This document shows, in pieces, positions 17,199 through 59,418 of a DNA stretch of 59,418 bases (within the stretch, counting starts at the first letter, position 1; each line of letters starts with the position of its first letter). The DNA comes from an uncultured Clostridia bacterium. GTDB lineage: Bacteria > Bacillota > Clostridia > Oscillospirales > Butyricicoccaceae. A program made the position numbers and the translations under genes. Where the stretch lies: positions 1-59,418 of the forward strand of contig CALLCY010000006.1 in assembly GCA_938000015.1 (NCBI GenBank), given 5' to 3'. The notes under the pieces are model-generated. The model was given only the letters and a program-made list of their open reading frames with translations. It had not been told where the DNA came from and searched no databases.

Positions 17199-18056
17199 TT
17201 ATGCAAAATCAAATCCCAGATACCATTCTTCCCCTGTGGGTACCGGCAGGCCGGACACCATGGCAAAAGGCTCTTTTTCTCCACCCAGTGCCTGGCTCCA
17301 GGGAGGCAGGCGCACTTGCGCCTTTTGACAGCCCAAGGCATCCATCAGGCCGGCAAGGCAACCTTCCAGCGCCTCCTCCGGCCCCAGCAGCTCCCGCACC
17401 TGGAGCCGGCCTTCCGCGTCGATTTCCGCCGCAGCACAGCACTGAGGAGCCTGAGGAAAGGCAAACAGGCCCCCGTTCTCTTCTTGGGAGATCCGGCGCT
17501 GAAACTCCACCAGCCGTCCCTCCCAATCCATAAAGTTCCGGCCTTCCAAGGCCCTTCGCCGCAGGGAGATATAACCTTCCGCCCCAATGGGCCGGGGAGA
17601 AATATGGGCTTTGGGCAAACTCTGCCGTTCTTTTTCGGCAAAACGAATGTAAAAGGCGGTTTCCGCCCCCAAAGCCTTGGCATAAAAGGGGTACAGCTCT
17701 GGAGTATCAGGCACCACGGCCACGCAGTCCAGTTCCCCGTCTTTCAGCCGCTCCACCGCCCGCTTCAGCAAAGCGGTGGCTGCCCCCCGCCCCTGATAAT
17801 GGGGCAGAGTAGCCAAGCCATAAATGCAAACGGCCCTTTTTTTCATCCCCGCCTGGGTATGTAATGTACCGGGGAGCAGGGTCATCATGGCACACAGTGT
17901 TTCTTCCCAAAAGCCCAGCTCCACTTGCTTTGGAGAAAAGGCACAGGATTCGTAGATTTCCCAAAACTCCTGGGTATCCCCAAAACACTCCTGCCACAAA
18001 GGCCGCAGACACGGCTCTTCCCCAACCCGGGCCAGGCGGAAACGGAGATCAGCCAT
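17199..18056 (-). CDS. GNAT acetyltransferase (Eis-like N-terminus)
   Basis: LWQECFGD, IYGLATLPHYQGRGAA, LYPFY; start ATG 18056 overlaps upstream stop. Confidence 0.8.
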   Translation of the reverse strand: MADLRFRLARVGEEPCLRPLWQECFGDTQEFWEIYESCAFSPKQVELGFWEETLCAMMTLLPGTLHTQAGMKKRAVCIYGLATLPHYQGRGAATALLKRAVERLKDGELDCVAVVPDTPELYPFYAKALGAETAFYIRFAEKERQSLPKAHISPRPIGAEGYISLRRRALEGRNFMDWEGRLVEFQRRISQEENGGLFAFPQAPQCCAAAEIDAEGRLQVRELLGPEEALEGCLAGLMDALGCQKAQVRLPPWSQALGGEKEPFAMVSGLPVPTGEEWYLGFDFA

Positions 18057-21000
18057 TGTTCTTCTCCTTTTTCCGGTCCCGCAGAGTGGACAAAACAAAG
18101 AGCAGAAGCAGCACGCCCACGCCCAAGCCCAGAGTCATCACGCCTTTTTCCACTCCAAGCAGCAGCACGGCGGCAAAGATCATGGGGCCCACCGTCTGGG
18201 CGATGCTTTCCACCGCACTGTTGATGCCCATGGCTTTGCCCGAACCGTAAACCCGCACCTCCGGTAGGGCACTGAAATACACCGCCTGCATGGAAAGGCC
18301 GAAGCTGTCGGCCACCGCCAGAAGGAGGATGATGACAAAGCAAAACTCCACGGTGGGATACAGAGCAAAGAGCAGGAAAGCGGCCACATAAATCCCGGTG
18401 GCCAAAATCAAGCCGCCCCGAGCGCCCAGCTTGTCGGTGACCACTTTTGTCAGGGTGGGGCCCAAATAGATGGCCACCACACCGGAGATCAGGAAGGCCT
18501 GGGCCACAAAGGAGGCGCTGAGCCCGTTTTCATCTCCGAAAATGGGGAAGAAATAGCTGAGGAAGGAAGCGCAGATCAGATAAGGTGCGAGCATGAACAG
18601 GAAGAAGAAAAACACCCGCGGTTTGAACAGGAAAGCCCATGTGGACATTCCTTTTTCCTCCACTTCTGTTCCGCCGCCCACGGACTGCTTGTGCAGGCAG
18701 AAAATAGCCAGCAGCAGAGCCACCGCTGTGACCACCACAGCGATGTAGAACACATTCCGGTAACCGAACTGCTCGGCCGCCAGGGAGCCCACCACAGTAC
18801 CGCAGTTGACACCGGAAAGATAAGCGGCGTTATAGCCAGAAAAGCCCCGGTTCCGCTGCTCCTCTTCCCCATAGTTGCTGATGAAGGTGTTGAGGGCCAC
18901 AAGCACCAGACCTTCGCCCACGCCCAGCACCACGCTGGCCCCGATGAGGAAGCGCAGGTCGGGGGCGGCGCCGCACAGCCCCAAGCCGCCCATAAAGAGC
19001 ACGCTGCCCACAGAGATCAAGGGTTTTGTGCCCACTCTGTCCACCAAAAATCCGCCTAAGAAGGAAAAGATGGCGGTGACCAGAACCTCGGCCGACAGAG
19101 GAATGGCCGAAGCCACCACTTTCTGGATACCCATGGAACTATCCCAAAGCCCCATGCCATACACCGGCAAAAAGGCGGTGGACATATTTCCTGCAAAGAA
19201 AATCAGGAAGGCGATGGGCCGCACAATGCCCACATCCCGCAGCAGATGCTGCCGTCTTTCCTGCCGGTTGTTGTGCAGAGCCGCGAAGAACACCGTGCTT
19301 TCGGAAAAGAGCAGCACACAGGTGACCACCACCATGAGCACGGTGAGCAATGTCTCCCGGATCAGGGCCTGATTGCTGGCAGTAAAGGCATACAAATCGG
19401 TGCCCACCTCAATGAGCCCCACCACTTTGCCATTTTCATCGGTGATGGGAGCCAGGGTAAAGGCATAGTGCCCATCGGCGCTGGAAAAGGCAGAAAACTG
19501 CTTCAGCTGGCCTGTTTCATAGATCTCCGCTTCGTGGGAACCTTCGAACACACCGCTCATGGGATAGAGCACATTGTTCAGTCCTTCGTCGGAATAGACA
19601 ATGCAGACCACTCCGTCTTTTTCCCGATAGAGAGTGCAGTAAGCCCCGTCCTCATTGATATCGCTGTCCATGATCTCCTGCACCGACGCATCGATGCGCT
19701 GATAGGCGGGAGAATCATAGGCCTGGGGAGAATCCAAAGCGGCAATGTCTTTGGCGTCCAGATCCCGGGCCATAAGCACCGCCATATTGGTCATCTTGCT
19801 GATCCGCTCCTGAACATAGCGGGTATTCAGATCCCCAACCACCACCGTAGCAGTAACGGCCGCGCCTAGTACCGCCGCCACGATGACCGCCAGATGCATC
19901 CGGCTTTTGGGGGTGATCCGGCTCAACCATCCAGCCCGCAGAACATAGACCAGACACAGAACAACCAGCGCGACCAGCAACACAATGGCTCCGCAGGCTG
20001 CATATCCCCACAGCCGCACGGAAAGGGTTTTGGATACCTCTGCTGTGTTGAGCAGCACCTGCCCCTCTGCATCCTTCACATAGATGCAGTAATCATAGGT
20101 ATAATCATCAATGCTTTCATCAAAATAGTACTCACAGTAAATAGAAGCCAAATTCCCTTCCGGTGTCAGGGTGACAAAGGAATAAAGAGGAAGCTCGTTG
20201 AAAGCCTCGGGCTTTTCTGCCACAGTCTCCCCTTGTCCCACTGCGGTCTCCACCTGCCCCTCCGGGGTAATACGGCGGATCTCCCGTTTTCCCAGGTCGT
20301 TGAAATAGATACTGCCATCTGCGGCACACACCAGGTTGGCCGCAATACTATCCTCTTCCCCACTGGCAACAGGATCATAGATCAGAGCGTGATCTCCATC
20401 TTCCGACCCCTGGTACAAAGCGCCATATTTATCGGTGAAATACACCATTCCCTCGGGGGAAACGGCGGCATACATCACCTTCTGCCAGGCGTCTTCACAG
20501 GGGTAAAACCCTGTTTCCGTCTTCTTCCCGGTGTCTTTGTCCAAGGTGCACAGCCGCAATCCCTTCTGCTCCACCTGGACAAACCACAGCTTTCCATCCC
20601 GCCACCGAAGGTCCTGGATGCGCACCCGGTTGTCTCCCTCGGTGCTCTCCCGGGGCAGCTCATACAGATAATCCACAAAGCTCCCCTTTTTGTCATAAAC
20701 GGCAATGCGCTCGCTCTGGATGTCTTTTCCATTTTCGCCCAGGATCTTGTCGCTGATGTACAAATTCCCCTCTTCATCGGCAGCCATGCTCTGGGCATAG
20801 TAAAAGCCCTGGCTCTGCTGGCCTCCGGAAAGAGTGCGCAGATACTGGTTCTCCTCGTTGAGCACCAGGATGCTGGTGCTGCCTCCGGCGATGATGTATC
20901 TTTGCCCATCCAGGCCAAACAACACCACCGTGGGGTCGCTGATGTAAACCGAATCCTTCCGAGGATCGGTCTTAAGAGCGCTCCACCCTACCACAAGCAC

Positions 21001-21066
21001 CAACAGGCACACAAGGGCCAGCAGTCCAAGGAAAAGCAGACGATATTTTTTCCACAATGCTTTCAT
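18049..21066 (-). CDS. Fusion: extracytoplasmic beta-propeller + Cache-like sensor + C-terminal MFS transporter
   Basis: N-terminal TM, repeated xADxxGxLY blades, two TMs, FTLAPITDENGKVVGLIEV, then about 12 TMs with GFLVDRVGTK and TDKLGAR MFS motifs. Confidence 0.8.
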   Translation of the reverse strand: MKALWKKYRLLFLGLLALVCLLVLVVGWSALKTDPRKDSVYISDPTVVLFGLDGQRYIIAGGSTSILVLNEENQYLRTLSGGQQSQGFYYAQSMAADEEGNLYISDKILGENGKDIQSERIAVYDKKGSFVDYLYELPRESTEGDNRVRIQDLRWRDGKLWFVQVEQKGLRLCTLDKDTGKKTETGFYPCEDAWQKVMYAAVSPEGMVYFTDKYGALYQGSEDGDHALIYDPVASGEEDSIAANLVCAADGSIYFNDLGKREIRRITPEGQVETAVGQGETVAEKPEAFNELPLYSFVTLTPEGNLASIYCEYYFDESIDDYTYDYCIYVKDAEGQVLLNTAEVSKTLSVRLWGYAACGAIVLLVALVVLCLVYVLRAGWLSRITPKSRMHLAVIVAAVLGAAVTATVVVGDLNTRYVQERISKMTNMAVLMARDLDAKDIAALDSPQAYDSPAYQRIDASVQEIMDSDINEDGAYCTLYREKDGVVCIVYSDEGLNNVLYPMSGVFEGSHEAEIYETGQLKQFSAFSSADGHYAFTLAPITDENGKVVGLIEVGTDLYAFTASNQALIRETLLTVLMVVVTCVLLFSESTVFFAALHNNRQERRQHLLRDVGIVRPIAFLIFFAGNMSTAFLPVYGMGLWDSSMGIQKVVASAIPLSAEVLVTAIFSFLGGFLVDRVGTKPLISVGSVLFMGGLGLCGAAPDLRFLIGASVVLGVGEGLVLVALNTFISNYGEEEQRNRGFSGYNAAYLSGVNCGTVVGSLAAEQFGYRNVFYIAVVVTAVALLLAIFCLHKQSVGGGTEVEEKGMSTWAFLFKPRVFFFFLFMLAPYLICASFLSYFFPIFGDENGLSASFVAQAFLISGVVAIYLGPTLTKVVTDKLGARGGLILATGIYVAAFLLFALYPTVEFCFVIILLLAVADSFGLSMQAVYFSALPEVRVYGSGKAMGINSAVESIAQTVGPMIFAAVLLLGVEKGVMTLGLGVGVLLLLFVLSTLRDRKKEKNNG

Positions 21067-21090: not shown

Positions 21091-22074
21091 TCAGGGCCTT
21101 ATGGTCACAGTGTATTTATCCACCAGCCTGCTGGGGCGATAGTGAAGCTTGTTTTCCCGCAGGCCCGCAAGACCCATATCCTCGCACCAGTTGAGCTGAG
21201 GCGGATGGCCGGGCAAAAGGGCGCAATGATAACTGATATAATAGGTAAGCCCCCGTAGATTGACGGCGTTTTTCTGAAAAGAATAGCAAGCGCAGTTTCC
21301 CAGAGTTTCCCCCAAGGCAAAAGCCATGGGTTTCTCTTCTATGTACACCAGTCCGCCATAATAGCGGCCCTCTTCCCAGATGCTTTCCAGCCGTGCAAAG
21401 GCCTGGCGCTCACAGCCGAAAAAGCAGTCTTTGCAGTCTCTGTCCTGACACCACCGGTCGAAAACCTGAAGCATCGGATGAAAAAGCTCCTGACGCAGCG
21501 GCTCAAACCGAACACCGGCAGTTCCTTCCACCAGTTTCAATTCCCTGCGGCGGGATTTGTTCGCTCCCCCTTCCAACAGGGTAAAGTCCGCCACATCGTA
21601 CACATAATCGCTCCAATCCCGATGGGTGGATACTTCTGTGGGCACGCCCAGTCCTTTATAGAGAGACAGCCATTCCTCCGGGATATATTCGCAAATCAGG
21701 GAGTGGCCCCATCGCCCAAACAACTCACTCAGCACATGGACGGCCGCCTCCAGCCTGCGGGAAGGCCCGGGCATCAAGATAACGGCGGGCACCTGGTCCA
21801 AAGTGATATACACCACTGCCAGTGTATCGCCTACCAGTTTCCAACAGTAGTGAAACACCTCTTCCCAGGCCCAGAAGTTGGTGAAGGACAGGTCAAAAAA
21901 GACGCTCTCCCTGCTGTACTGGTCCACCATGGCCCGGTCTTCCAGCCGAAAGGAGCGGAACCCCTGTTTTTCTTTCAGCCACTGGAGAAAATCTTTTAGC
22001 TTTTGTGGCAGAAGCACCTCTGGTTTTTCCTCTTCCCATTGTTTTTTCCCGTCCCATATCCGCGCCGTTTCCAA
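21091..22074 (-). CDS. DUF2156 / aminoacyl-phosphatidylglycerol synthase C-terminal-like protein
   Basis: DLSFTNFWAW, DWSDYVY..L..LEG, LNWCEDMGLAGLRENKLHYRP. Confidence 0.75.
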   Translation of the reverse strand: METARIWDGKKQWEEEKPEVLLPQKLKDFLQWLKEKQGFRSFRLEDRAMVDQYSRESVFFDLSFTNFWAWEEVFHYCWKLVGDTLAVVYITLDQVPAVILMPGPSRRLEAAVHVLSELFGRWGHSLICEYIPEEWLSLYKGLGVPTEVSTHRDWSDYVYDVADFTLLEGGANKSRRRELKLVEGTAGVRFEPLRQELFHPMLQVFDRWCQDRDCKDCFFGCERQAFARLESIWEEGRYYGGLVYIEEKPMAFALGETLGNCACYSFQKNAVNLRGLTYYISYHCALLPGHPPQLNWCEDMGLAGLRENKLHYRPSRLVDKYTVTIRP

Positions 22075-22088
22075 AATATGCTCGCTCC

Positions 22089-23765
22089 TTACCCGATTTG
22101 TTTTTCATCCACAGGGATGAGCCGGCCTTCTTCCAACCGATAGATCCGCCGGCACCCCTGTAAATCCTCCATCCGGGCCGACAGCACCACAAAGGTGCGT
22201 CCATCCTCTTGGGAGGGCAGAGTGTTTCCCAGCACAATGTCCCGGCCTGTTTTCCAAGCCACTCGGCTGCGCAAAGCAGCGCCGTTAAATCGTCCCAATT
22301 CCACACCGCCGTAGTAGATATTTCCTCCTGTGGGCCGCTGCAATCCGGTGGCCAGACGGCAGAAGGTGGTTTTTCCCGCCCCGGTGCCGCCATAGATCCC
22401 CACCCGATCCCCAGGGTTCAGCCGCAGAGAGATCCCCTGCAACACCGGCTGCGCCGAATCCGAATAGGAAAAGGTCACATCCTTCCACTCCATCACACTG
22501 CCCAAAGAGGGAAGCGGCACCTGGCCGCCCGGTCTCTTTTTCGCCCGGGGCAGCAAAGAGCGCAGTTCGCCTGCGGCCCGTCCGGCCCCCGTGGCCGACA
22601 GCACCTGCTGTAAAGGCAGCGCAGCAAAGGGAAGATACAGCAATATATTTTGCATCAGCCGGCCAGCCGAACGGCCATCCGATACCATCCAGGCCACCAC
22701 CGGCAAGGCCAGCAGCAGCGCAATCCAAAACGAGCCGCCGATGTACTTCCATCTTTCCACAGGTTTCTTTTCTCCCGGGAAAGGACGGCAAATACCCAAG
22801 CGCCGGTCATCCGCCCGGTGGAGCACCCATTGCCGCCGCTGCCGGGCTTCCTGAATTCCCTTTTTCCGGCTCCGAGCCAAGAAGAATAGAAGGACAGCCA
22901 ACACAAACAGCACCGCCGTGGTCAGAAGGCTCCAGCCCCGTGTTTTCCCCTGGAAAAAGGGCAGGACCCACGCCAGTGCGCACAGGCTCCAGACTCCGGA
23001 CAAAATCCAGCCCATCAAGTGCCGGCTATCCTCCTGAAAATGGGCCAAACTTTCCGCCGCATCTTCTTCGCCGTCCCCTTCGTACAGACGCCGCAGCAGG
23101 GCCGGCAGAGCCAGAATGGCTCCTTTGTCCCCCGCCCGCTCAATAATGCGGCGGCTCGTGAACACCGACAGCGCCAACAGAAGAAATACCCCTGTGAGCA
23201 AAAACCAAAATGCGCCCAAATCGCCTCCATCGGCCAACAGCATCACGCTGGACAAGGTCTGGCGGGTCAGATAGGCAAACAGCGCCCACAATGCGCCGCT
23301 CAAAAAGCCCAGCAGCATCAAAAGCACCCCAGCCCGCAGGCTGAGGCCCTGCACCAGCCGGAAAACCAGGTTGGCAAAGGACAGCTTTGCCCTGGGAAAG
23401 TCCACGGTGGCGCTATAAGCCCTTTGGAAGTTTCCCGGATTCTTTTTTCCCAGATAGATCCGCTTTCCGGTGGCTTCGTCTTTGAAATAATACCGGCCCC
23501 AGCCGTCGGAAAGCACAGCCCGGCTGATTCCCCCTTCATCCTCCACCAGAAAAGGCCCCACCGAAGTGCGGTACCAATCCCCTTCCAGCAAAGTGGGGGT
23601 TAAAAGCAGCTTTCCCTCTTGGTTCAGCTGTTCCACCGCCTGCTCCAGATCCTTCACATCCTGGGAGAGACTGGGAGACGGCAGACGGAAATAATCAAGC
23701 AAACGGCAAATGCCGGGAAAATTCTCCACAGCCGCCCGTTTTTCATCCCTTGGGTTCATTTCCAT
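22089..23765 (-). CDS. NHLP-type export ABC transporter permease/ATPase subunit, internally deleted NBD
   Basis: LEGDWYRTSVGPFL N-terminal motif, TM domain, Walker A GGTGAGKTT but no LSGGQ or acidic Walker B. Confidence 0.7.
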   Translation of the reverse strand: MEMNPRDEKRAAVENFPGICRLLDYFRLPSPSLSQDVKDLEQAVEQLNQEGKLLLTPTLLEGDWYRTSVGPFLVEDEGGISRAVLSDGWGRYYFKDEATGKRIYLGKKNPGNFQRAYSATVDFPRAKLSFANLVFRLVQGLSLRAGVLLMLLGFLSGALWALFAYLTRQTLSSVMLLADGGDLGAFWFLLTGVFLLLALSVFTSRRIIERAGDKGAILALPALLRRLYEGDGEEDAAESLAHFQEDSRHLMGWILSGVWSLCALAWVLPFFQGKTRGWSLLTTAVLFVLAVLLFFLARSRKKGIQEARQRRQWVLHRADDRRLGICRPFPGEKKPVERWKYIGGSFWIALLLALPVVAWMVSDGRSAGRLMQNILLYLPFAALPLQQVLSATGAGRAAGELRSLLPRAKKRPGGQVPLPSLGSVMEWKDVTFSYSDSAQPVLQGISLRLNPGDRVGIYGGTGAGKTTFCRLATGLQRPTGGNIYYGGVELGRFNGAALRSRVAWKTGRDIVLGNTLPSQEDGRTFVVLSARMEDLQGCRRIYRLEEGRLIPVDEKQIG

Positions 23766-27903: not shown

Positions 27904-27919
27904 TTCTTCACCCAATTCC

Positions 27920-31404: not shown

Positions 31405-31419
31405 GGCTGTCACCTCCTG

Positions 31420-50813: not shown

Positions 50814-51560
50814 TCAGTTGACTTTCACCATGGCGCCCTTCACATTGGTGACGCCGCTGGCCTCCAGATTCAGCTGGCCGCTGGCCTTCACATTGACGGC
50901 GCTCTTGCCGCTGACATCCACCTGCTGACCATCCAGCTTGATGTTTCCCGAGGCCTTGATGGTGATCTGGTTGCCGCTGCCGTCCAGCTCGATGGAAGCG
51001 CCGCCGCATTTGAGCACCAGTTTGGTTTTGGCCTCCAATGTCACGGTGCCGCCTCCGATATCGATCTTCAGCAGATTGGTTCCATCTTTATCGGTGAGGG
51101 CAATGGTCTTTTCCTTGTCGTTCATGGAAAGGGCGCTTTCCCCCGCGGTTTTCAGCGTCAGACCAGGGGTTTCCTCTCCATCGTTCCACTCCATCAGATG
51201 ACCTGTTTTGGATTTGATGGTGCGCAGCTGGTTTTTGCCTTCCTCCACCTTACCCGGGCCAGGGGCTTTGGTGTTGTACAGGCTGCCCAGCACATAGGGA
51301 GAAGTGAAATCTCCGTCTACAAACCCCACCAACACCTCATCCCCCACTTCCGGCAGGAAAAAGGCGCCGTAGTCCTTACCGGCCATGGGGGTCATCACCC
51401 GGATGTAATCGGTCTCCTGGAGGGAATCGGTGCGGTTGAGCAGCCGGACTTTTACCCGGTTCTTTTTCTCCGGGTCCTTGATGTCGCTGACAATGCCCAC
51501 CGTGATACCGCAGAAGGACTGGTCCTCATGCTCCTGGGCCAGCATTTCGAAGATGCTCAT
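50814..51560 (-). CDS. Baseplate assembly protein V / gp5-like spike (OB fold + beta-helix)
   Basis: DPEKKNRVKV, FLPEVGDEVLVGF, PYVLGSLYN, C-terminal beta repeats. Confidence 0.9.
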   Translation of the reverse strand: MSIFEMLAQEHEDQSFCGITVGIVSDIKDPEKKNRVKVRLLNRTDSLQETDYIRVMTPMAGKDYGAFFLPEVGDEVLVGFVDGDFTSPYVLGSLYNTKAPGPGKVEEGKNQLRTIKSKTGHLMEWNDGEETPGLTLKTAGESALSMNDKEKTIALTDKDGTNLLKIDIGGGTVTLEAKTKLVLKCGGASIELDGSGNQITIKASGNIKLDGQQVDVSGKSAVNVKASGQLNLEASGVTNVKGAMVKVN

Positions 51561-51575: not shown

Positions 51576-52676
51576 CTACATCTTGTTTCCCGCAATGTGG
51601 ACGATGGTATCAAATCCATCCCGATCCAGATGATGCACCACTTTGGTGATGAAATAATCCCGGTTCAGATCCTCGTTGAAGCCCTTGAGGGTAATCATAT
51701 GGCCGGGGAACAAAATGGGGATTCCCGAAAGTTCGATGGTGCCTGTGAGAAACCCCATGGACATCTGATCCAGCAAAGCCTGGGCCCGGGCCTTGGACTC
51801 GGCCTCGGAACGCACCGAGCCATCGGCCACCACCTTTTCCATGGTGGCGGTGATCAGCTTGGTGGCGTCGGCCCCCGCCTTTTTGCCGCCTCCCACTCCG
51901 GTGACGGCGGTGGCTTTGGCTTCAAAAGGCTTGCTTTCGTCTTCCGGGTTGTGGTTGCGCACCGTCACCGATTTCACCTGATTGGCCAAAGTGACCTCCC
52001 GGCGAAACCGGCGCAGATTTTCTCCCGGCTCCACCGTCAACAGACTGTCGGTGAATTTCTTATAGCTGACGAAATACACCGTATCCTGCACCACATAAAA
52101 AAGGTAATTCAGCCGTTTGGCCAAGGAGACCACAAAATCATAATCACTTTGGTTGTGCTGCTCGATAGGGGCCAGCACCTCTGCGCTCACTTCCACCTGC
52201 TTGCTTTTATAAAGAGAGGTGTAGTTTTTCAGCACATCGTTCACCGCTTCGGAGTATTTGGTGATGCCCTTTTTCTGCAAGGAGCGATAGCTGCTCATCA
52301 TAAATTGCTTGCAGTCCATGGCGGTGACGATCACGGCCACCCGATCTCCCTGGATATCGATTTCCTGGGAGGAGATATAGCCCACAAACACCGATTGGGC
52401 GTTTTTGCTCTCTCCATAGCCCAGAAAAACCTCCAGTTTGGCCCCCAGCACCAGCTTATCCAAAGAGGTATCCATCTGGAGTTTCCCATCTTCAAAACGG
52501 GAATACTGGCCCACCACTTCCAGTGTGCAGTCACTGGCCTCCATGCCGGTGGACATATTCACCTGAATGCTGGTATAGATCAGCTGCTCTCCTGGAAGAA
52601 GAGAACCGTTGACATGGAAATAAGCCACCGGCCGCTGAAAATTATTGAATTGTTGGGCCGCATCGTTGAGGGTCAC
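51576..52676 (-). CDS. Late control D / gp27-like hub protein
   Basis: QHNQSDYDFV..LAKR, VTVRNHNP, G.P.L.PG, YFITKVVH. Confidence 0.85.
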   Translation of the reverse strand: MTLNDAAQQFNNFQRPVAYFHVNGSLLPGEQLIYTSIQVNMSTGMEASDCTLEVVGQYSRFEDGKLQMDTSLDKLVLGAKLEVFLGYGESKNAQSVFVGYISSQEIDIQGDRVAVIVTAMDCKQFMMSSYRSLQKKGITKYSEAVNDVLKNYTSLYKSKQVEVSAEVLAPIEQHNQSDYDFVVSLAKRLNYLFYVVQDTVYFVSYKKFTDSLLTVEPGENLRRFRREVTLANQVKSVTVRNHNPEDESKPFEAKATAVTGVGGGKKAGADATKLITATMEKVVADGSVRSEAESKARAQALLDQMSMGFLTGTIELSGIPILFPGHMITLKGFNEDLNRDYFITKVVHHLDRDGFDTIVHIAGNKM

Positions 52677-52709: not shown

Positions 52710-53426
52710 TCAAATGGGCAGAGACCGGAGAAATTTCCCCGCCTTTTCCACCATTTTCAGCATATCCGAGGTGGAATCGCTTTGATCCAAAGGGTCCGCA
52801 TTGGTTTTGGTCACCATGGACAAAGAGACTTCGGCCCCCAGCGGCGCACCCTGGTTGGAAAAATAATTAAAAGTCGTCTGAATTTTGGTGATGATCCCTT
52901 TATAGGCCATATTGCCCCAGGTAAATATCACCGGCACCTGCTTGTGAGCAGCTTTCATCAAGGGGGTATAGCAGCACAGATCTTCGTTGAACAAGCTCAG
53001 ACTGGTAAAGTCAGTCTTTTTGATCAAATCACTCAAAGCGCTTTCCGCCTGGCCGATCTTGTCGCCGCTGCCGATCAGGCTGGTGACAATACTGGTGGCC
53101 GCTGTGGCCAAAGCCTTGAACTCCACTCCATCGGTTTTGGCGTTGTATTCTTCCACAATGTTGAAAATCAAGGTGATATCCACCTGTTGTTCCCCAATGC
53201 CCCGGGGCAGAATCTTGCCGTCGGCGGCTGCGGTCTCCGGGGTTTTTTCATTGGCGACCCCTTCTTCCCGCTTCACCTGCGTGGTGGCGCTCACCTTCAG
53301 ACTGGATGGGTTGAACAGCACAGGATAAGGCCCTTCGGATTCCCATTTTCCATTGCTTTTTTGTTTGGTGGCGATAGTGAATGTGGCTTTATCCACCGCA
53401 CCGAACCGTCCGCCCAGCGCACACAT
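52710..53426 (-). CDS. CIS tube-initiator (Afp7-like) lacking LysM
   Basis: VLFNPSSL, VIFTWG..KGII....FNYF...GAPLGAEVSLSM. Confidence 0.75.
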   Translation of the reverse strand: MCALGGRFGAVDKATFTIATKQKSNGKWESEGPYPVLFNPSSLKVSATTQVKREEGVANEKTPETAAADGKILPRGIGEQQVDITLIFNIVEEYNAKTDGVEFKALATAATSIVTSLIGSGDKIGQAESALSDLIKKTDFTSLSLFNEDLCCYTPLMKAAHKQVPVIFTWGNMAYKGIITKIQTTFNYFSNQGAPLGAEVSLSMVTKTNADPLDQSDSTSDMLKMVEKAGKFLRSLPI

Positions 53427-53459: not shown

Positions 53460-56400
53460 TTACCGGCCGATTTTCCGCCGTTCTGTCCGCAGCCGCCGCT
53501 CGACCCGATCCAGCACCTGAGCGGCCATGCGGTTATAATTGAGATCCTGCAACACCTGCTGGATGATGCGCTCTTCGGTCTCCTGGCTGATGGCTCCGGG
53601 AGCTTCCGGCCTGGGACGGCTCTCCGGCGCCTGATAGGAATAGGCCGCGTTCATGGCCGACACATATCCTGCGTCCACCGATTGAGCCCGCAGCACTTCT
53701 TCCCCGCTCTCTTCCTTCTCCTGGGGTGCACTCTGCGGCCGGGGCGGCAGACGATAGACCACGCTCTGTCCTGTCCCTTTCACTGCATCCTGGGAGGAAG
53801 CTGCCGGTCTGCCCGGCTGTGAAACCGGTGTTCCTTCGGAAAACTCCGGGAAAAAGGCGGTGTGCACCATGGGCTGAGATGTTTCATCCTGCCCGGCAGG
53901 AGACGGAGCATTCTCCAAAGACAGCAGAGACGAAAGTCCCTGGCCTCGCCGAACCACCGGTGCCCCTTCTTTCTGCAATGGTGCAGGCTCCTGAGGTTTT
54001 CCCTGGCCCCGCGCAAGGGCAAGATGTCCCATCATGGGTTTCATACCCATGGAAGAAGTCTCCATTTCCCTTTGCTCTTCCCCTTGTTCCGGCTGGGCAT
54101 CCAGAGAAGTGCGGAACACCATGTCCCATGGCCCCTCCTCCTCCCAGGCTGTGGGAGGAGTTCCATTGGGATGGGAAAGGGGTCTTTGACCTTCTGGCGA
54201 AGGCATGAAGCTCTTTCCACCGTTCCAGGCCCCACCCCGCCAAGGGCGGGAAAAGGGAAGCGTCCTCTTTCCCGCCGGGGCTGCAGTCCTCCTGACCCCC
54301 ATGGGAGCCAGAGACGAAGTTCGTCCGATGGCAACCATGTTTTCTATGGCAGGAACAGCGGAAGAAAGAAACGAAAGAGAGAATGGAACAGAAAAGAAGG
54401 ATTTCCCCCATTCTGTTTCCGACCGAATAGCAGAATTCTCCTCGCTCCACCGTATCGGCTCCCCATCCCAAGCCCAAGGCCGCGGGAGAGGGGAAAGCGA
54501 AGGAGCTTCCAGTTTCCAGGAAGGTTCTGGAATGGAAGAAGGAGACCATGCCGCCCGCCCTGGCCGGAAAGAAGATACTTTGTTCCCCCGATCTACCTGA
54601 TTGGGCTGAAAAGCGCCCAAAGCTGCACGGTATATTGTCTCATGTCTTTCACCGCTCACCGGCTGCATCTGCGCCAACACACCGGATCGGGACAATACCA
54701 CAGCGGGCAGCGCTGTGCGGTATACCGGCTCTTGAACTCCGCCGCTGACTGGCTGCATCCGTGCCAATGCACTGGAGCGGGACAATGCCTCAACAGGCAG
54801 CGCCGTGCGATATACCGGCTCTTGGACTCCTCCGCCCTCCGGCTGCATTCTCGCCAATGTACCGGATCGGGACAATGCCACAGCGGGCAGCGCTGTGCGG
54901 TATACCGGCTCTTGAACTCCGCCGCTGACTGGCTGCATCCGTGCCAATGCACTGGAGCGGGACAATGCCGCAGCGGGCAGCGCTGTGCGGTACACCGGCT
55001 CTTGGGCTTCTCCGCTCACCGGCTGCATTCTAGCCAATGCACCGGATCGGGACAATGCCGCAGCGGGCAGCGCCGTGCGGTACACCGGATCTTGAACTTC
55101 TCCGCTCACCGGCTGCATTCTAGCCAATGCACCGGATCGGGACAATGCCGCAGCGGGCAGCGCCGTGCGGTACACCGGATCTTGAGCTTCTCCGCTGACC
55201 GGCCGCATCCTTGCCAACGCACTGGATCGGGACAATGCCGCAGCAGGCAGCGCCGTACGATATACCCGCTCTTGAGCTTCTCTGCTCACCAGCTGCATCC
55301 GCGCCAATGCACCAGATCGGGACAATGCCGCAGTAGGCAATACCGTACGATACACCCGCTCTTGAGCTTCTCCACTAACCGGCTGCATCCTCGCCAATGC
55401 ACTGGATCGGGACAATGCCTCAGCGGACAGCGCTGTGCGATATACCGGCTCTTGGGCTCCGCCGCTCACCGGCTGCATTCTCGCCAATGCACTGGATCGG
55501 GACAATGCCTCAGTAGGCAGCGCTGTGCGATACACCCGCTCTTGAGCTCCACCGCTTACCGGCTGCATCTGCGCCAACACACCGGATCGGGTCAATGCCT
55601 CAGTAGGCAATGCCGTGCGATACACCGGCTCTTGGGTTCTGCCGCTCACCGATGCAATCGTGGTTTCCTGCTCAGCCTGTGACGCAGTCCGATGGACCAA
55701 AGAAGAAGGCCACCCGGCTCGTCTCTGCGGAAAAAGAGGACTGGGCCAAAAGACCCTCGAGCCCAGCATTCGGCTGCTGGCCCGCTGGAATACCGAAGCA
55801 TTTTTTGCCTTTTCTCCCAGCGTCAAAGCCGTCTTTGGCCAAACTACATCTCCTTGGCTTGGCCTTTCCCAGGCTGCTCCCCGTTGGTTTTCCCCAGCTG
55901 AGAATACCGTTTGGGCACTTCCTGCCCTTTCCACAGACCATGCCGTGTGAGGATCATTGGAACGAACAGGAAGCCGGGCTTCATCGTTTGGAGCCGGTGC
56001 TTCACTGGAACCAATTTCTCGGAAGAGTAGTGGCTCTGTATTCCAGCTCTGGCTCTTTGGCCCGGGCAACATTCCCTTCGCAGACAAAGGAGAATCGATC
56101 CAAGGCATCCCTTGGACCCCAGTAGAACGAAGAAGAGACTGCTCTTGCTTTCGTCCCCAAGCCGCCCCTTTAGAAGTCAAGGTCAGTGGCCCAATGGACA
56201 GCGCTCCGGCCTTTGTAATTCCTCCATGAGGGAACAGGACATAAGAAGATGGGAAAACCGAAAGAATATTTGACATTCCCAAAGCCCTGGGCGCAAGCGC
56301 TGGAAGATTTCCCATTGGCTGAGACATTCCAGCCTCTGTATGAGGAATTTTGGACTGAAAAACGGAGGCAACATGAGAAATCGCCGAAAAAGTCCGAAGG

Positions 56401-57464
56401 ACCGGCAGGTTTTTTTCCCCCGGTCTCTCTGTTTCTTCCCCATGTACTTCCCGGGCTCCAGCAGAAACTGGCCGGGTTGCGCTCCCACGCTCTACTCCAG
56501 AAACAGTGCTTGCAGAACCTTGGGATACACTTTCCGGTGTCCCTTGAATGGGAAGTGGGGCGCGCAGCCCCCGGGAGTTTTCCCCAGTTTTTTCTTCACC
56601 TCGGCGGCTCGTTTCTTCTGTCTGGGCCACAGCAGACTCCCGGATCACTTCCTTATGAGGAAGCGAAGAGCTGCTTTCCTCTGGTTTCTCCCCCTTTTTC
56701 TGGCTGCGCTTCTTTTTCCCCTTGCTGGGGAAAGCAGCATCCCCTTGTTCAGGGAGATCATAACGGTTTTTTTGCTGCCGCAAACGGTGAGGCACTGGGG
56801 CCTGCTCTCGTACCATTTCCCCCTGCTCTGGTTTTTGCACTATGGTCAAAGGGGGGGTATGCAAAGACTGCGGCTTTCTTTCGGCCTCCGTCCGACTAGG
56901 GCCAGAGGTCTCCGGCTTCAAAGAAGGAGCTGGGCGAACAGAAGAAAGCTGTTTTTCATGCGCCGGGACAGATTTCCCCGGCAGCACGGCCCGTGTCAGC
57001 CGTTCTTCACCGAATTTGCCGTTTTTTTTTAACTGTTGGGTCAGTTCCGAAAGAGCCTTCTGAAACTGGCCAGCCTGGATCAACTCCCCTTCCACAGCCC
57101 GCCGGATCTGCTGGGCCTGGGAGCTTACCGAGCCCCGAGCGGTGGAAAGCGCCTGATCCAGCTGACGGGTCAGCTGAAGCTGTAAGTTGTGCTGCTGGCG
57201 GAGAAAGGTGTTACTTTCATCACAATAAGCCCGCAGCTGCATCAAAAGATTGACCACCACCGGCTGTTGAGGTGCCGGAGTCAGTTCTGCCCCCTGTCCC
57301 TCCCGTGGGAGTACATAGGACAAAGATTCCAGACGCAACGCCTCTCCCGTGATCCCCTTTTGTAGGATGGACTGACAGAAGGCGGCATTGCTGCCAGGCA
57401 GGGTGAACTCCCCCAGCCCCCGGCCGATGGTACCGGTTATTGGTTTGAATCCTCCCATGCCCAT
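53460..57464 (-). CDS. Large low-complexity repeat protein (1334 aa), tape-measure candidate
   Basis: Open frame with RBS, between tube and tube-initiator genes; C-terminal helix MAAQVLDRVERRLRTERRKIG resembles ends of CIS-locus proteins. Confidence 0.7.
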   Translation of the reverse strand: MGMGGFKPITGTIGRGLGEFTLPGSNAAFCQSILQKGITGEALRLESLSYVLPREGQGAELTPAPQQPVVVNLLMQLRAYCDESNTFLRQQHNLQLQLTRQLDQALSTARGSVSSQAQQIRRAVEGELIQAGQFQKALSELTQQLKKNGKFGEERLTRAVLPGKSVPAHEKQLSSVRPAPSLKPETSGPSRTEAERKPQSLHTPPLTIVQKPEQGEMVREQAPVPHRLRQQKNRYDLPEQGDAAFPSKGKKKRSQKKGEKPEESSSSLPHKEVIRESAVAQTEETSRRGEEKTGENSRGLRAPLPIQGTPESVSQGSASTVSGVERGSATRPVSAGAREVHGEETERPGEKNLPVLRTFSAISHVASVFQSKIPHTEAGMSQPMGNLPALAPRALGMSNILSVFPSSYVLFPHGGITKAGALSIGPLTLTSKGAAWGRKQEQSLLRSTGVQGMPWIDSPLSAKGMLPGPKSQSWNTEPLLFREIGSSEAPAPNDEARLPVRSNDPHTAWSVERAGSAQTVFSAGENQRGAAWERPSQGDVVWPKTALTLGEKAKNASVFQRASSRMLGSRVFWPSPLFPQRRAGWPSSLVHRTASQAEQETTIASVSGRTQEPVYRTALPTEALTRSGVLAQMQPVSGGAQERVYRTALPTEALSRSSALARMQPVSGGAQEPVYRTALSAEALSRSSALARMQPVSGEAQERVYRTVLPTAALSRSGALARMQLVSREAQERVYRTALPAAALSRSSALARMRPVSGEAQDPVYRTALPAAALSRSGALARMQPVSGEVQDPVYRTALPAAALSRSGALARMQPVSGEAQEPVYRTALPAAALSRSSALARMQPVSGGVQEPVYRTALPAVALSRSGTLARMQPEGGGVQEPVYRTALPVEALSRSSALARMQPVSGGVQEPVYRTALPAVVLSRSGVLAQMQPVSGERHETIYRAALGAFQPNQVDRGNKVSSFRPGRAAWSPSSIPEPSWKLEAPSLSPLPRPWAWDGEPIRWSEENSAIRSETEWGKSFFSVPFSLSFLSSAVPAIENMVAIGRTSSLAPMGVRRTAAPAGKRTLPFSRPWRGGAWNGGKSFMPSPEGQRPLSHPNGTPPTAWEEEGPWDMVFRTSLDAQPEQGEEQREMETSSMGMKPMMGHLALARGQGKPQEPAPLQKEGAPVVRRGQGLSSLLSLENAPSPAGQDETSQPMVHTAFFPEFSEGTPVSQPGRPAASSQDAVKGTGQSVVYRLPPRPQSAPQEKEESGEEVLRAQSVDAGYVSAMNAAYSYQAPESRPRPEAPGAISQETEERIIQQVLQDLNYNRMAAQVLDRVERRLRTERRKIGR
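54620..55655 (-). repeat. About 11.5 tandem 90-bp (30 aa) coding repeats
   Basis: ta(t/c)acc-type anchors every 90 bp from 54721 to 55621 plus a partial copy at 54631; unit QPVSGEAQEPVYRTALPAAALSRSGALARM. Confidence 0.93.
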
Positions 57465-57494: not shown

Positions 57495-57977
57495 CTAAAA
57501 CAGAGAAGGAATAGGAATATTTTTCAGCCCCTTATGGGTGATGGTGAATGTTTCGATCAAAGGCTCGGAGCGAGTGGCGTCCAGATTGCTGACCTCCCAC
57601 TCCACAACGCCCTGGGAAATAAAGGAATAGATCGCCTTGATGCTCTGGCTTTCGTCCAGCACCAGGATCAGGCCCAGGGCATCCTTGGCCTCAATGGCCT
57701 GACTGCCCACATATCCAGCCAAAAGACCGGCGATGCTCAGCTTGCGCATCTGGTATCCCCGCTTAAAAACGAGCCGGTGAGGTTCGGTCTGGGGTTTGGG
57801 AATGCGGATGGGATAGTAGTTACGGCCCCCTTCGCTGATGAAATCCACCGACTGGCTCCGCCCAATGCCTGAAACACTCTGAAATCCCAGTGTCACTGCA
57901 TTGAACAGCACAATAAACCGCACCGCCACAATGGGATCATAATGGCTGCTGCGGGTGATGAAAAAGGGTACCTTCAT
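57495..57977 (-). CDS. T4 gp19-like tail tube protein 2 (Afp5-like)
   Basis: GFQSVSG, EGGRN, LVFKRG, LDAT.SEPLIETFTITH. Confidence 0.82.
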   Translation of the reverse strand: MKVPFFITRSSHYDPIVAVRFIVLFNAVTLGFQSVSGIGRSQSVDFISEGGRNYYPIRIPKPQTEPHRLVFKRGYQMRKLSIAGLLAGYVGSQAIEAKDALGLILVLDESQSIKAIYSFISQGVVEWEVSNLDATRSEPLIETFTITHKGLKNIPIPSLF

Positions 57978-58013
57978 GCGCTTCCTCCTTTCCCCAAGGG
58001 TCCCGTTTTTTTG

Positions 58014-58208
58014 TTAAAACACATCAAAGATGTTTTTGCCCCGGGTCTCCTGGTTCATTTTGTCATTGATCCGGGAAACCTCCCGGCAAAACCGGAGCCG
58101 CTCCCTGTGTTCCATGTCCATCAGTTCGCCGTAACTCCAGTGCAGATAGTAGCCCAAAAAAGCTATCTCCTCATAGATCCGGTCCAGGGGATAGCTTTTT
58201 GCTATTCC
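58014..58208 (-). CDS. DUF6760-like ORF with no ATG/GTG/TTG start before its conserved region (probable frameshift extension of the tail chaperone)
   Basis: Hand translation GIAKSYPLDRIYEEIAFLGYYLHWSYGELMDMEHRERLRFCREVSRINDKMNQETRGKNIFDVF*; absent from the ORF track. Confidence 0.8.
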   Translation of the reverse strand, partial: GIAKSYPLDRIYEEIAFLGYYLHWSYGELMDMEHRERLRFCREVSRINDKMNQETRGKNIFDVF

Positions 58209-58567
58209 CCCAGCAGGGATACCTCCACCTTGAACTTTTCACCGCAGTGGGGGCAGGTTGCTTCCACCCGAATGGGCTCCACCGCGTTGATCTGCTGGTA
58301 GAGGTTCTGGAGATAGGCCATATCGGAAGAGGGCAGCTTTTCCACGATCCGGTTGTCGATGGCCGGCAGCGTGCCCAGTTTGGTGATGACCCGTGTCATC
58401 AGCACCACGCTGAGATAGGCCGGGTTCTGCTGGACCCTAGGGTCCTTGAGAGGCAAAATCTCATCCGCCGCCGTGGCAAAACGCATGGTGCCCTCCCGAT
58501 GCACCGTGCCGTTTTCATCCATATAGCCCCGGGGCAATGTGAAGGGATATTCTGTTTGGTAAGCCAT
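58202..58567 (-). CDS. Tail assembly chaperone
   Basis: FTLPRGYMDE.G.VHREG.MR.ATAADEI, D..YLQ.LY..IN, CPHCG; ATG 58567. Confidence 0.82.
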   Translation of the reverse strand: MAYQTEYPFTLPRGYMDENGTVHREGTMRFATAADEILPLKDPRVQQNPAYLSVVLMTRVITKLGTLPAIDNRIVEKLPSSDMAYLQNLYQQINAVEPIRVEATCPHCGEKFKVEVSLLGE

Positions 58568-58603
58568 GTATGGCACCTCATTTCTTCGCTATGGTGACCT
58601 TGC

Positions 58604-58660: not shown

Positions 58661-58667
58661 TGACGCA

Positions 58668-59090
58668 TCACTCGGTGCGAGTCAGGCCTTCGTGGGCCAG
58701 CTCGATGGTTTCGATGGCCACCTCAGAGGAGGTGCCGTTGAAGTCCGGAGCGGTGTATTTCACCGGCCAGGCGTTGATGCACCGCCAGGAAGCGGCAGGG
58801 GAACCCTCTTCGTCCAGAGCGGTAAGGGTCACTGTCTTTTTCTCGATGGTGCCTTCGGTGATGTCGATGAGCCAATCATAAAGCACCATGGTCTCAGAAG
58901 AGCCCCATTTCAAGGTGATGTTGCCATATTTGATCAAGCCGGGCAGCTTTGTGGGGGTGATGGCAGGATCGTCCCCGGCCCGGTATTCCACCACATCGAT
59001 GGTGGCGTCGAAACCGCTGACTTCGCTGAAGCTGCCGGCGTCCAGGCCGTCGATCTCCAGGCGGAATCGGAAATTACGATAGGGAAGCAC
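58668..59090 (-). CDS. T4 gp19-like major tail tube protein (Afp1-like)
   Basis: FRFRLEIDG..GSFSEVSG, EYRAG, KLPG..KYGNITLKWG, AWPVKY, VAIETIELAHEG. Confidence 0.93.
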   Translation of the reverse strand: MLPYRNFRFRLEIDGLDAGSFSEVSGFDATIDVVEYRAGDDPAITPTKLPGLIKYGNITLKWGSSETMVLYDWLIDITEGTIEKKTVTLTALDEEGSPAASWRCINAWPVKYTAPDFNGTSSEVAIETIELAHEGLTRTE

Positions 59091-59133
59091 TTGCTGTTCA
59101 ACTCCTTATATAAAAATCGTGAGAGCCTTTTTC

Positions 59134-59418
59134 TTATTCGCCGGTCTTCTGGGTCAGGCGGAAGATGACAAATTCCGCAGGCTTGACAGGAGCCACGCCG
59201 ATGACGCACACCAGGCGGCCGTTGTCGATGTCATCCTGGGTCATGGTGTTGGTGCCGATGTTTACAAAGAAGGCGTCGGCGGCAGTGGAGCCAGCCAGAG
59301 CGCCGCTCTTCCACATACCCTCCAGAAAGACCTCGATGGTGCGGCGGACACGAATCCACAGCAGCTCGTCGTTGGGCTCAAAGACCGCCCAGTTGGTGTT
59401 GGCTTTGATGGACTCCTC
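59134..59418 (-). CDS. Contractile tail sheath protein, C-terminal part (5' end outside window)
   Basis: WAVFEPND..LW.RVRR.IEVFL..MWKSGAL.G..AFFV..TMTQDDIDNGRLVC.IGVAPVKPAEFVIFRLTQ. Confidence 0.93.
   Translation of the reverse strand, partial: EESIKANTNWAVFEPNDELLWIRVRRTIEVFLEGMWKSGALAGSTAADAFFVNIGTNTMTQDDIDNGRLVCVIGVAPVKPAEFVIFRLTQKTGE

Follow-up and report, generated by a model that had tools for sequence, protein, structure and literature searches.

How a contractile injection system (CIS) works in thick-walled bacteria with a single membrane is an open question, and it is raised by the locus described here, found in an uncultured Clostridia bacterium. The stretch analysed (the window) is 59,418 bp long and is the entire contig C6 (CALLCY010000006.1; GC content 0.576) of an assembly of 2.36 Mb in 234 contigs, 90.6% complete. 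The host genome is Intestinimonas-like; its near kin are Intestinimonas butyriciproducens An565 and Ruminococcaceae bacterium AM07-15, and its more remote kin comprise uncultured Oscillospiraceae and Clostridia metagenome-assembled genomes (MAGs) and two Intestinibacillus MAG chromosomes. From position 59418 down to 17199 the window carries 30 genes, all on the minus strand, which form the array of an Afp/PVC-type CIS. Of its 29 junctions, 24 measure 50 nucleotides (nt) or less (median 25 nt), and the sole large gap, 357 nt between the genes for a DUF4157 protein and a solute-binding protein (SBP), holds a gene of 76 codons on the opposite strand. Gene families were assigned by Pfam, PHROGs and NCBIfam searches of the window proteins and transmembrane (TM) segments by a hydropathy scan. 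Gene number, Pfam part list and junction lengths agree with the initial annotation of this DNA, which had described at least 42 kb of tightly coupled minus-strand genes with a near-complete extracellular CIS (eCIS).

The answer towards which the evidence leans, by a modest degree, is that membrane proteins encoded by the array provide, at the cytoplasmic membrane, a platform on which the particle docks and is controlled. The locus would then represent a Clostridia-specific lineage of Afp/PVC-type CIS that encodes its own membrane and cell-wall module, with a sensor and a degenerate exporter as additions in one sub-lineage.

Envelope proteins inside the structural operon

The genes for the fibre-like protein and the cap are separated by four genes for envelope proteins, as the initial annotation had stated, all within the structural operon and with junctions of 13-65 nt. 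From the fibre side to the cap side these are:

41174..42313, minus strand: pseudokinase domain (residues 1-241, cytoplasmic; AlphaFold2 (AF2) and Foldseek), TM segment (242-260; hydropathy) and LysM domain (E 1.4e-3)
38442..41147, minus strand: TM segment, beta-propeller ectodomain, two TM segments, second ectodomain, TM segment, HAMP domain (E 9.2e-8), pseudocyclase domain and helical, TPR-like end
37002..38411, minus strand: basic N-terminus (residues 1-72), TM segment (73-91; hydropathy), MORN repeats (PF02493, E 2.1e-13) and C-terminal domain
35837..36988, minus strand: envelope protein with signal peptide (N-terminal hydrophobic segment), coiled coil and Cu_amine_oxidN1 domain (PF07833, E 3.2e-6)

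The N-terminal 241 residues of the first protein adopt a protein kinase fold (AF2 pLDDT 84.4; Foldseek probability 1.0, with at least 500 kinase matches), the top match by TM-score being PknB of S. aureus (TMq 0.64). Alignment of nine homologues leaves just two invariant catalytic-loop residues, Pro and Asn; the Asp, the Lys and the DFG Asp are not conserved, for which reason the protein is probably not an enzyme. Its layout is that of the PASTA-type kinases (PknB/Stk1/PrkC), with a cytoplasmic kinase fold, one TM segment and an extracellular wall-binding domain; those kinases carry PASTA, whereas the window protein has LysM in its place and unconserved catalytic positions. The place after the fibre gene is taken by a pseudokinase-like gene in the window, in genomes G010 and G014 and in six further aligned loci (242-290 residues in the six). 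In G010, an uncultured Clostridia MAG, the pseudokinase-LysM gene (G010:C21:28239-29492) is inverted relative to the operon and still adjoins the fibre gene. A complex prediction for the fibre-like protein and the pseudokinase domain gave a score of 0.27 (mark 0.32).

The propeller ectodomain of the HAMP protein matches designed and PQQ propellers, and its output domain has the class III cyclase fold (AF2 pLDDT 84.0; Foldseek E 1.1e-9 to Cya2 and TM-scores of 0.66-0.69 to Cya2 and CyaB; profile against PDB, E 1.1e-13). Where an active cyclase has two metal-binding Asp residues, an Asn and an Arg, the window protein has Thr, Ala, Met and Ala, and its family shows no conservation at these positions. 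For the third protein, the positive-inside rule would place the MORN repeats on the outer face of the membrane. The homologue of the fourth protein in G014 (E 9.7e-13) was missed by the search of relatives and found by a separate scan. Judged by domain content, some loci fill the envelope role with other wall-anchoring domains, as does an SLH protein in the same slot of G030; this protein, of 761 residues with three SLH domains (G030:C14, L051 13354-15639), is encoded between the HAMP-pseudocyclase and AAA genes. The domains named by the initial annotation (MORN, HAMP-pseudocyclase, pseudokinase-LysM, DUF2156 and sensor-MFS) were all recovered by Pfam, AF2/Foldseek or alignment. The motif sets against which inactivity was read are those we take to be canonical for kinases, cyclases and ABC proteins, the comparisons themselves coming from the alignments.

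The association of these genes with the CIS was followed in an order-wide sample of 401 genomes, 19 of which encode the cap family. Generic MORN repeats were matched by the MORN profile in 119 of the 401, and matches reaching the N-terminal TM region were identified in the CIS clusters of 17 of the 19 cap-positive genomes. The gene was mapped within the cluster in 16 of these 17, the window genome included; for G295 the count relies on position only, the MORN gene being 23 kb past the sheath gene of that chromosome, an arrangement shared with its relative G014. Among the matches listed for cap-negative genomes, which leave out 32 weaker ones, a single one reaches the TM region (G292, E 3e-17). 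The TM-MORN gene is thus a conserved membrane gene tied to the CIS and, on these gene counts, its product comes near to marking this CIS lineage.

The HAMP-pseudocyclase gave strong matches in 7 genomes among 61 relatives, in all 7 within the CIS cluster. A class-wide sample of 330 scored genomes contained 13 others with full-length matches (E<=8e-45), 8 of which, all outside the order, were examined. In four of the eight (G465, G544, G571 and G723, from four families and with GC contents of 24-50%), the gene stands beside MORN and CIS genes; in the remaining four (G491, G703, G713 and G504) no CIS gene was found within 20 kb. Because of the latter, the family is not CIS-specific and is a wider one from which this CIS lineage recruited its member. 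Homologues of 420-510 residues (E 1e-45 to 1e-59) are carried by Clostridia-class genomes of 0.8-1.0 Mb that are 99-100% complete (G713, G504, G586, G533 and kin), and the two of these examined had no CIS gene within 20 kb.

Strong homologues of the envelope genes, and of the exporter and sensor-MFS genes described below, are almost confined to cap-positive genomes in the 401-genome sample, and the genes stay together at 27-50% identity and through rearrangement. The proposal that they belong with the CIS is borne out by this co-occurrence and kept linkage. On independent occurrence of the modules, which the initial annotation had named as a ground against its own proposal, the outcome is divided: strong homologues are mostly found in cap-positive genomes, and a related exporter cassette with intact motifs stands alone in two cap-negative genomes, as does the HAMP-pseudocyclase in four of the eight loci examined.

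A platform for docking and control is suggested by four features taken together: the genes for the envelope proteins stand among those of the structural operon, dead enzymes make up the cytoplasmic parts of these proteins, domains of wall-binding or sensing kinds their outer parts, and no lysis genes were recognised in the three versions of the locus that were scanned. In such a platform binding to the particle, at its baseplate or cap side, would fall to the pseudokinase, the pseudocyclase-TPR part, the MORN protein N-terminus and the pseudo-ABC proteins, and the LysM, Cu_amine_oxidN1 and MORN ectodomains would fix the platform in the wall. [quoted passage not shown]

With regard to lysis, no holin or endolysin family was identified in 31 window proteins searched with Pfam, in 10 searched with PHROGs or in the remaining window, in line with the initial annotation. 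It had also advised a look upstream of the sheath; this was taken in G006, with no lysis gene recognised, and none was recognised among the scanned neighbours of the complete G014 locus (EF-Ts, S2, DUF1015 and ADH among them).

Several points weigh against docking. A physical link between membrane proteins and particle is so far putative, and the motif readings depend on alignments and canonical motifs. Counts such as 17 of 19 ignore kinship and overstate the number of separate events, kin not being independent. No MORN or HAMP partner was found in the two remaining cap-positive genomes, G191, with a CIS cluster without envelope genes, and G107, where the cap alone was matched in a 20-kb contig; the four HAMP-pseudocyclase loci without CIS genes point the same way. 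Lysis genes may lie elsewhere in the genome or belong to families not recognised. The Afp15-type AAA protein, the cap and DUF4157 are hallmarks of released particles. Finally, a fibre-like protein is present with Tail_P2_I and Big_2, which fits a published fibre class of Bacillota CIS that was taken by its authors to point to action outside the cell (PMC12923769, partial text), and this fit keeps an extracellular mode of action among the readings to be weighed.

The best-placed rival is a classical extracellular CIS, assembled in the cytoplasm and released by lysis of a producer subpopulation, whose Big_2 fibre binds the targets and whose membrane proteins are regulators, release-timing or self-protection factors and not a docking site. 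It accounts for the complete set of Afp/PVC parts, including cap, AAA and DUF4157, and for the fit of the fibre-like protein and Tail_P2_I to the published class (PMC12923769, partial text); according to reviews, particles are usually released through lysis (PMC12961389 and PMC8213781, partial texts), sensor and HAMP domains are typical of signalling proteins, and a LytTR regulator and a GHKL kinase lie divergent upstream of the operon in G006. It accounts poorly for three locus versions with no lysis gene recognised in or beside them, for presumed signalling proteins that have neither catalytic residues nor a DNA-binding output, and for envelope genes set in the middle of the structural operon with such short junctions. 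The fibre-like protein, moreover, is conserved across families (25-32% identity over its full length) like the core baseplate parts (21-29%), unlike fast-evolving receptor binders. Release by lysis is therefore held to be an unlikely account, if a serious one.

Sensor, exporter and small antisense genes

Beyond the DUF4157 gene the array continues, as the initial annotation had read it and as Pfam and TM scans bear out, with seven genes:

26770..27915, minus strand: SBP lipoprotein (Peripla_BP_6, PF13458, E 5.3e-34) with lipobox-like N-terminus
25883..26773, minus strand: short HlyD-type adaptor (HlyD_3, PF13437; TIGR03794 below cut-off)
23743..25869, minus strand: ABC1, with C39-like domain lacking the catalytic Cys and His (PF03412, E 3.7e-24), ABC permease and degenerate nucleotide-binding domain (NBD)
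22089..23786, minus strand: ABC2, with Walker A kept and about 70 residues including the signature missing (ABC_tran profile positions 1-63 of 137 only)
21091..22074, minus strand: DUF2156 protein (LPG_synthase_C, PF09924, E 3.3e-24)
18049..21066, minus strand: sensor module (TM segment, propeller, two TM segments, ectodomain, TM segment; hydropathy) fused to a 12-TM MFS transporter (PF07690, E 2.7e-37)
17199..18098, minus strand: GNAT acetyltransferase (PF13527/PF00583), last gene of the array

Over their N-terminal parts, of 600 and 580 residues respectively, the sensor-MFS and HAMP families are homologous (hhalign probability 99.7%, E 2e-25, 527 columns); the homology is seen by profile comparison only, BLASTP of the two proteins being not significant (E 0.28). 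From this homology of their N-terminal halves, the two proteins are paralogous and share one sensor, with outputs that differ. Sensor-MFS matches with E<=1e-243 were identified in 6 of the 401 genomes, all cap-positive and thus a sub-lineage of 6 among the 19. The next-best match (G405, E 3e-30) comes from a cap-negative genome, 82% complete, and may be a non-CIS member of the family or belong to a CIS left unassembled; this relative, of 976 residues (G405:C1, L076 3452-8232), adjoins a gene for a GGDEF_2-domain protein. HlyD matches with E<=2e-122 occur in 5 of the 401 genomes, all cap-positive and all directly after the block from cap to DUF4157, and the SBP-HlyD-ABC-ABC cassette is present in 5 of the 6 sensor-MFS genomes.

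Two gene orders, of largely the same set of genes, were compared. In the Intestinimonas-type order of the window the structural block comes first and sensor-MFS stands near the array end. The Intestinibacillus order (G014 and G295) runs sensor-MFS, cap to DUF4157, a small gene, SBP-HlyD-ABC-ABC, a 300-residue gene, sheath to fibre, pseudokinase-LysM, HAMP, MORN and Cu_amine_oxidN1. By this comparison the genes between cap and ABC2, these two included, have stayed together as one block, and what lies to its left and right has traded places. Matched proteins of G014 and G295 are 26-84% identical; the search of relatives returned no match there for the tape-measure-position, Cu_amine_oxidN1, DUF2156 and GNAT queries. 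The exporter genes of G014 continue straight on into its sheath operon, across gaps of 4 and 80 nt. In G158, from another family, sensor-MFS, cap to DUF4157 and SBP-HlyD-ABC extend to the contig end, HAMP, MORN and Cu_amine_oxidN1 being on another contig. G277, from a third family, has cap to DUF4157, DUF2156, sensor-MFS and GNAT, with no exporter in that contig, and in the CIS cluster of G465, from another order, an SBP gene adjoins that of an N-extended MFS protein. In two runs of one gut metatranscriptome study, contigs match the genes for cap, Cu_amine_oxidN1, MORN, AAA, HlyD and sensor-MFS at 90-95% identity, and one of these contigs, of 3.4 kb, spans cap to MORN; these come from relatives at low depth, DNA carry-over is possible, and they are not counted as proof of co-expression.

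The best NCBIfam matches of the exporter genes are three NHLP exporter families, all below cut-off (TIGR03794, 153.2 against 156.2; TIGR03796, 179.2 against 853.3; TIGR03797, 76.2 against 709.4). All 6 CIS-linked copies examined have Asn or Gly in place of the C39 Cys, and 4 of the 6 have also lost the His. Alignment with free-standing relatives shows that ABC1 has neither the Walker A Lys nor the H-loop His in any of 4 copies, and that 3 of the 4 are without the Walker B Asp-Glu, G014 keeping the Asp and having Gln for Glu. About 70 residues of ABC2, including the signature motif, are deleted in the window and in G014. As far as motifs tell, the exporter would retain at most one ATP-binding site, without a clear catalytic base.

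The free-standing SBP-HlyD-C39ABC-ABC cassettes of the cap-negative genomes G012 and G196 (HlyD E ~1e-44) have Cys, His and both NBDs intact. Their order is LytTR and GHKL regulators, SBP, HlyD, C39-ABC, ABC and then an SLH/Calx-beta surface protein of 2680-2690 residues; the order of the four cassette genes is that of the window, with ~30% identity in SBP and HlyD, and no CIS genes were found in the 26-34 kb around them. The surface protein beside the cassettes of G012 (C6:78001-98000) and G196 (C28) has an ordinary signal-peptide-like N-terminus. The window cassette resembles NHLP exporters in its set of HlyD, C39-ABC and second ABC and differs from them in its scores, in the lost catalytic Cys, Walker A and signature, and in an SBP gene translationally coupled upstream of HlyD. 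The repurposed NHLP-type exporter of the initial annotation therefore stands as to repurposing at the level of motifs (Cys, Walker A and signature lost); NHLP is only resembled, the scores being below the cut-offs.

Read from their motifs, four enzyme families are inactivated in the module, namely kinase, cyclase, C39 peptidase and ABC ATPase, which argues for binding or scaffolding roles of its proteins rather than catalysis or transport.

The small gene in the large gap is the following:

27972..28199, plus strand: conserved gene for a 76-residue protein, with two terminator hairpins (28208-28260) and a ribosome-binding site of its own

It lies between the DUF4157 and SBP genes, antisense to the array, and encodes an acidic protein. 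Place and orientation are kept in G003, G006, G010 (59% identity) and G014/G295 (34-38%), and the gene is absent from G158. The family comprises 63 protein clusters of 47-84 residues (58 of them of 74-79), all unnamed or labelled hypothetical; among 20 members read, 17 have a Cys at most three residues from the C-terminus and 5 end in Cys-Gly-Gly. Any likeness to Nif11/NHLP leaders is our presumption, Pfam and NCBIfam having given no match. No NHLP/Nif11-type precursor was recognised nearby, this being the only small gene, without core or family match; no homologue was found near the free-standing cassettes, and a regular-expression scan of 30 window proteins found no double-glycine leader.

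These data bear on the possibility that the genes SBP-HlyD-ABC-ABC, together with those for DUF2156, sensor-MFS and GNAT, have no part in the CIS and form a separate unit beside it, for peptide or protein export, quorum signalling or lipid modification. The only large gap and an opposite-strand gene separate the cassette from DUF4157, and a related cassette stands alone in G012 and G196. Of the 17 MORN-bearing CIS genomes, 11 are without a strong sensor-MFS match and 12 without a strong HlyD match, and in 11 such loci that were mapped neither gene lies within ~20 kb of the cap. This is outweighed by the adjacency of the cassette to the cap-to-DUF4157 block in 5 of 5 genomes from two families despite the block swap, by its fusion to the sheath operon in G014, by a sensor shared between sensor-MFS and the CIS-embedded HAMP protein with high scores only in cap-positive genomes, and by the loss in CIS-linked copies of peptidase and ATPase motifs that the free-standing copies have kept. 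Independence of this unit is thus considered improbable.

A bolder form of the docking proposal is offered tentatively, as a possibility that we rather doubt. The locus might encode the first envelope-anchored, signal-gated CIS of the Gram-positive Firmicutes, a T6SS-like weapon or a controlled self-destruct device of gut Clostridia, built with pseudokinase, pseudocyclase, a MORN wall anchor and a dead ABC/HlyD set as a possible port or socket. Control of its gating would lie with the duplicated propeller sensor and possibly with an exported 76-residue protein, and it may be related to the haloarchaeal T6SS-like CIS.

Injection-system genes and their surroundings

The injection-system genes, without the envelope genes listed above, are in the direction of transcription:

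59134..59418, minus strand: sheath, C-terminal 94 residues (PF17482, E 1.8e-12), 98% identical to the full sheaths of G003 and G006
58668..59090, minus strand: tube protein 1 (PF06841, E 7.8e-44)
58202..58576, minus strand: tail assembly chaperone-like protein, 124 residues (phrog_508, E 2.3e-7; no Pfam match)
57495..57977, minus strand: tube protein 2 (PF06841, E 5.6e-12)
53460..57464, minus strand: 1334-residue protein in tape-measure position (role from gene order only; no Pfam or PHROG match)
52710..53426, minus strand: tube initiator (CIS_tube/gpU-like, PF19266, E 7.4e-12)
51576..52676, minus strand: baseplate hub (gpD-like, Phage_GPD, PF05954, E 1.9e-10)
50814..51560, minus strand: spike (VgrG/gpV-like, Phage_base_V, PF04717, E 1.8e-25)
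50402..50797, minus strand: gp25-like baseplate wedge protein (PF04965, E 4.8e-15)
47372..50371, minus strand: baseplate wedge subunit, 999 residues (phrog_6, E 7.9e-9), conserved over its full length in all related loci
45307..47367, minus strand: Baseplate_J (Afp11/Cis11-like, PF04865, E 1.3e-8)
44126..45226, minus strand: Tail_P2_I-like baseplate/fibre adaptor (PF09684, E 1e-10), start codon uncertain; the G014 homologue has 366 residues
42379..44145, minus strand: fibre-like protein with C-terminal Big_2 (PF02368, E 3.3e-4; phrog_26622 tail fibre, E 3.7e-5)
35224..35811, minus strand: cap or tail terminator (Pvc16_N, DUF4255, PF14065, E 5.9e-32)
34478..35227, minus strand: 249-residue protein after the cap (CarboxypepD_reg weak, below cut-off), conserved in G010, G014 and G158
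34087..34476, minus strand: DUF4280, PAAR-like tip (PF14107, E 6e-40)
31966..34053, minus strand: AAA+ ATPase, Afp15-like (PF00004, E 2.1e-35; WHD, E 2.3e-10)
31420..31923, minus strand: conserved 167-residue protein without family match, conserved in G010 and G014
28273..31413, minus strand: candidate effector of 1046 residues with DUF4157/eCIS_core N-terminus (PF13699, E 1.2e-28) and variable C-terminus of about 900 residues

Sheath and tube (PF17482, PF04984 and two PF06841 proteins), the baseplate set of gp25, Baseplate_J, spike, PAAR-like tip and PF05954, and the cap Pvc16_N with AAA+ ATPase and DUF4157 are thus all present. The locus has the full Afp/PVC-type part list and is a CIS rather than a prophage, since no head, integrase or lysis family was matched and housekeeping genes stand on both sides of the G014 locus, EF-Ts and S2 on one side and DUF1015 and ADH on the other being among the flanking genes scanned in that closed chromosome. 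A defective prophage tail or R-type tailocin (a diffocin-like bacteriocin), for which the P2-like order of sheath, tube, chaperone, long protein, gpU, gpD, V, W, J, I and fibre could speak, is highly improbable given the Pvc16_N cap, AAA+ ATPase, DUF4157 and DUF4280, the housekeeping nature of the genes identified on both sides of the locus, and no capsid, terminase, integrase or lysis match either in the window or in those neighbours of the G014 locus that were scanned.

Relatives of the protein in tape-measure position are 1042-1404 residues long and conserved in the N-terminal part alone. The DUF4157 protein is likewise conserved only at its N-terminus in G010, G014 and G158, and a conserved DUF4157 N-terminus with a variable C-terminus is the pattern described for CIS effectors (PMC8213781, partial text). 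Its C-terminus gave no PDB sequence match, and Atlas scores of 0.82 or less are at chance level. The gene contains 96-bp tandem repeats at 30398-30868 (4.9 copies, 85% matches), encoding 32-residue linker repeats, and nearer its 3' end, at 28888-28996, short repeats of 18, 27 and 36 bp.

The contig end cuts the sheath gene, and the array starts beyond contig C6. The N-terminus of the sheath (PF04984 match) and part of one further upstream gene were found on contig C221 of the same genome. In G006 and G003 the sheath has 575-589 residues and is preceded by one hydrophilic gene of 298 codons, the first of the operon, which gave no family match in family and PHROG scans and no TM segment by hydropathy; a holin role was ruled out for it on both counts. 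Just upstream of the operon start in G006 (I. butyriciproducens; G006:C2:110039-112739) lie genes for a LytTR response regulator and a 645-residue GHKL histidine kinase, the latter transcribed away from the CIS operon; regulators of the same type flank the free-standing exporter cassette.

The lower end of the array is at 17199, the place given by the initial annotation. A minus-strand open reading frame of 163 codons below it (16708-17199) was rejected as spurious, overlapping a genuine plus-strand GNAT gene (16357-17145) that comes after a TauE exporter gene (15559-16353) and is convergent with the last gene of the array. Positions 1-17145 hold housekeeping genes (P-type ATPase, CNNM, haem synthesis genes, PBP1 and TauE). 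Among them are a tetrapyrrole synthesis operon at 4604-10932 on the plus strand (GlutR, NAD_binding_7 protein, porphobilinogen deaminase, methylase-HemD fusion, ALAD and aminotransferase) and, adjoining it, a class A penicillin-binding protein gene at 10993-14382 on the minus strand.

Known systems and meaning of the accessory set

To our knowledge, Streptomyces provides the only studied Gram-positive CIS, which is cytoplasmic and suicidal. The window locus shares with the Afp/PVC-type eCIS (Chen 2019, Geller 2021) the sheath, two tubes, baseplate set, DUF4280, cap, AAA+ ATPase and DUF4157 with variable C-terminus, and differs in four envelope proteins within the structural operon, to which the sub-lineage adds sensor-MFS and a degenerate exporter. 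Afp has a lysis cassette upstream (PMC12961389, partial text), whereas none was recognised in the window locus. The canonical T6SS has a split TssB/TssC sheath, ClpV and TssJLM; here the sheath is single, of 575-589 residues in relatives, and the ATPase is of PF00004 type.

Among systems known to work, the closest analogues are Streptomyces CisA and, in the haloarchaeal T6SS-like CIS, the putative membrane anchor. In Streptomyces a conserved CIS-encoded membrane protein, CisA, marks membrane-bound action (PMC12237407, partial text). The S. coelicolor producer is Gram-positive as well, and the C-terminal domain of CisA is SBP-like, as against a separate SBP lipoprotein in the window; the window has several membrane proteins instead of one, with kinase, cyclase, MORN, LysM and HAMP domains not described for CisA in the text available (PMC12237407), the two systems being compared by description only. 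A fibre-like gene, present in the window, further distinguishes it from the Streptomyces CIS. The haloarchaeal system, in which such a protein is again a sign of membrane-bound action, likewise works with a single membrane; its putative anchor Hbor_38620, with six TM helices and a cytoplasmic domain of 150 residues, is encoded with the cluster and not in CIS-negative genomes, and its Cis11 is reported to be closest to Bacillota (PMC11566945, partial text). Both precedents count in favour of docking. The window candidates belong to other families, and a search with the window Baseplate_J returned no named archaeal proteins.

CIS in Clostridia are already known, an example being the validated toxin of Ruminiclostridium cellulolyticum (PMC8213781, partial text), and a metagenome survey assigned almost all human-gut CIS to Bacteroidota (PMC12210884, partial text). 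Membrane-bound CIS are known as well; what appears to be new is the conserved accessory set of pseudokinase-LysM, sensor-HAMP-pseudocyclase, TM-MORN, sensor-MFS and inactivated exporter. No description of this set was found in the parts of the CIS literature available, and no paper was found that links CIS with MORN, HAMP-cyclase or ABC exporter or that deals with Intestinimonas, although supplementary tables may list such loci without comment. The terms "MORN" and "ABC transporter" are absent from the main text of PMC8213781, and "Firmicutes", "Clostridi" and "transmembrane" from the main text of PMC6899500.

The finding addresses how a CIS works in thick-walled, single-membrane bacteria. It defines a CIS lineage over several families of gut Clostridia and names conserved candidates for its anchor and trigger proteins. 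Four enzyme families inactivated in one module are an unusual case of enzymes turned into parts. In the culturable commensal I. butyriciproducens An565 the genes of the locus are 82-100% identical to those of the window, except for diverged tape-measure-position and DUF4157 proteins, and this locus makes docking, triggering and release directly testable.

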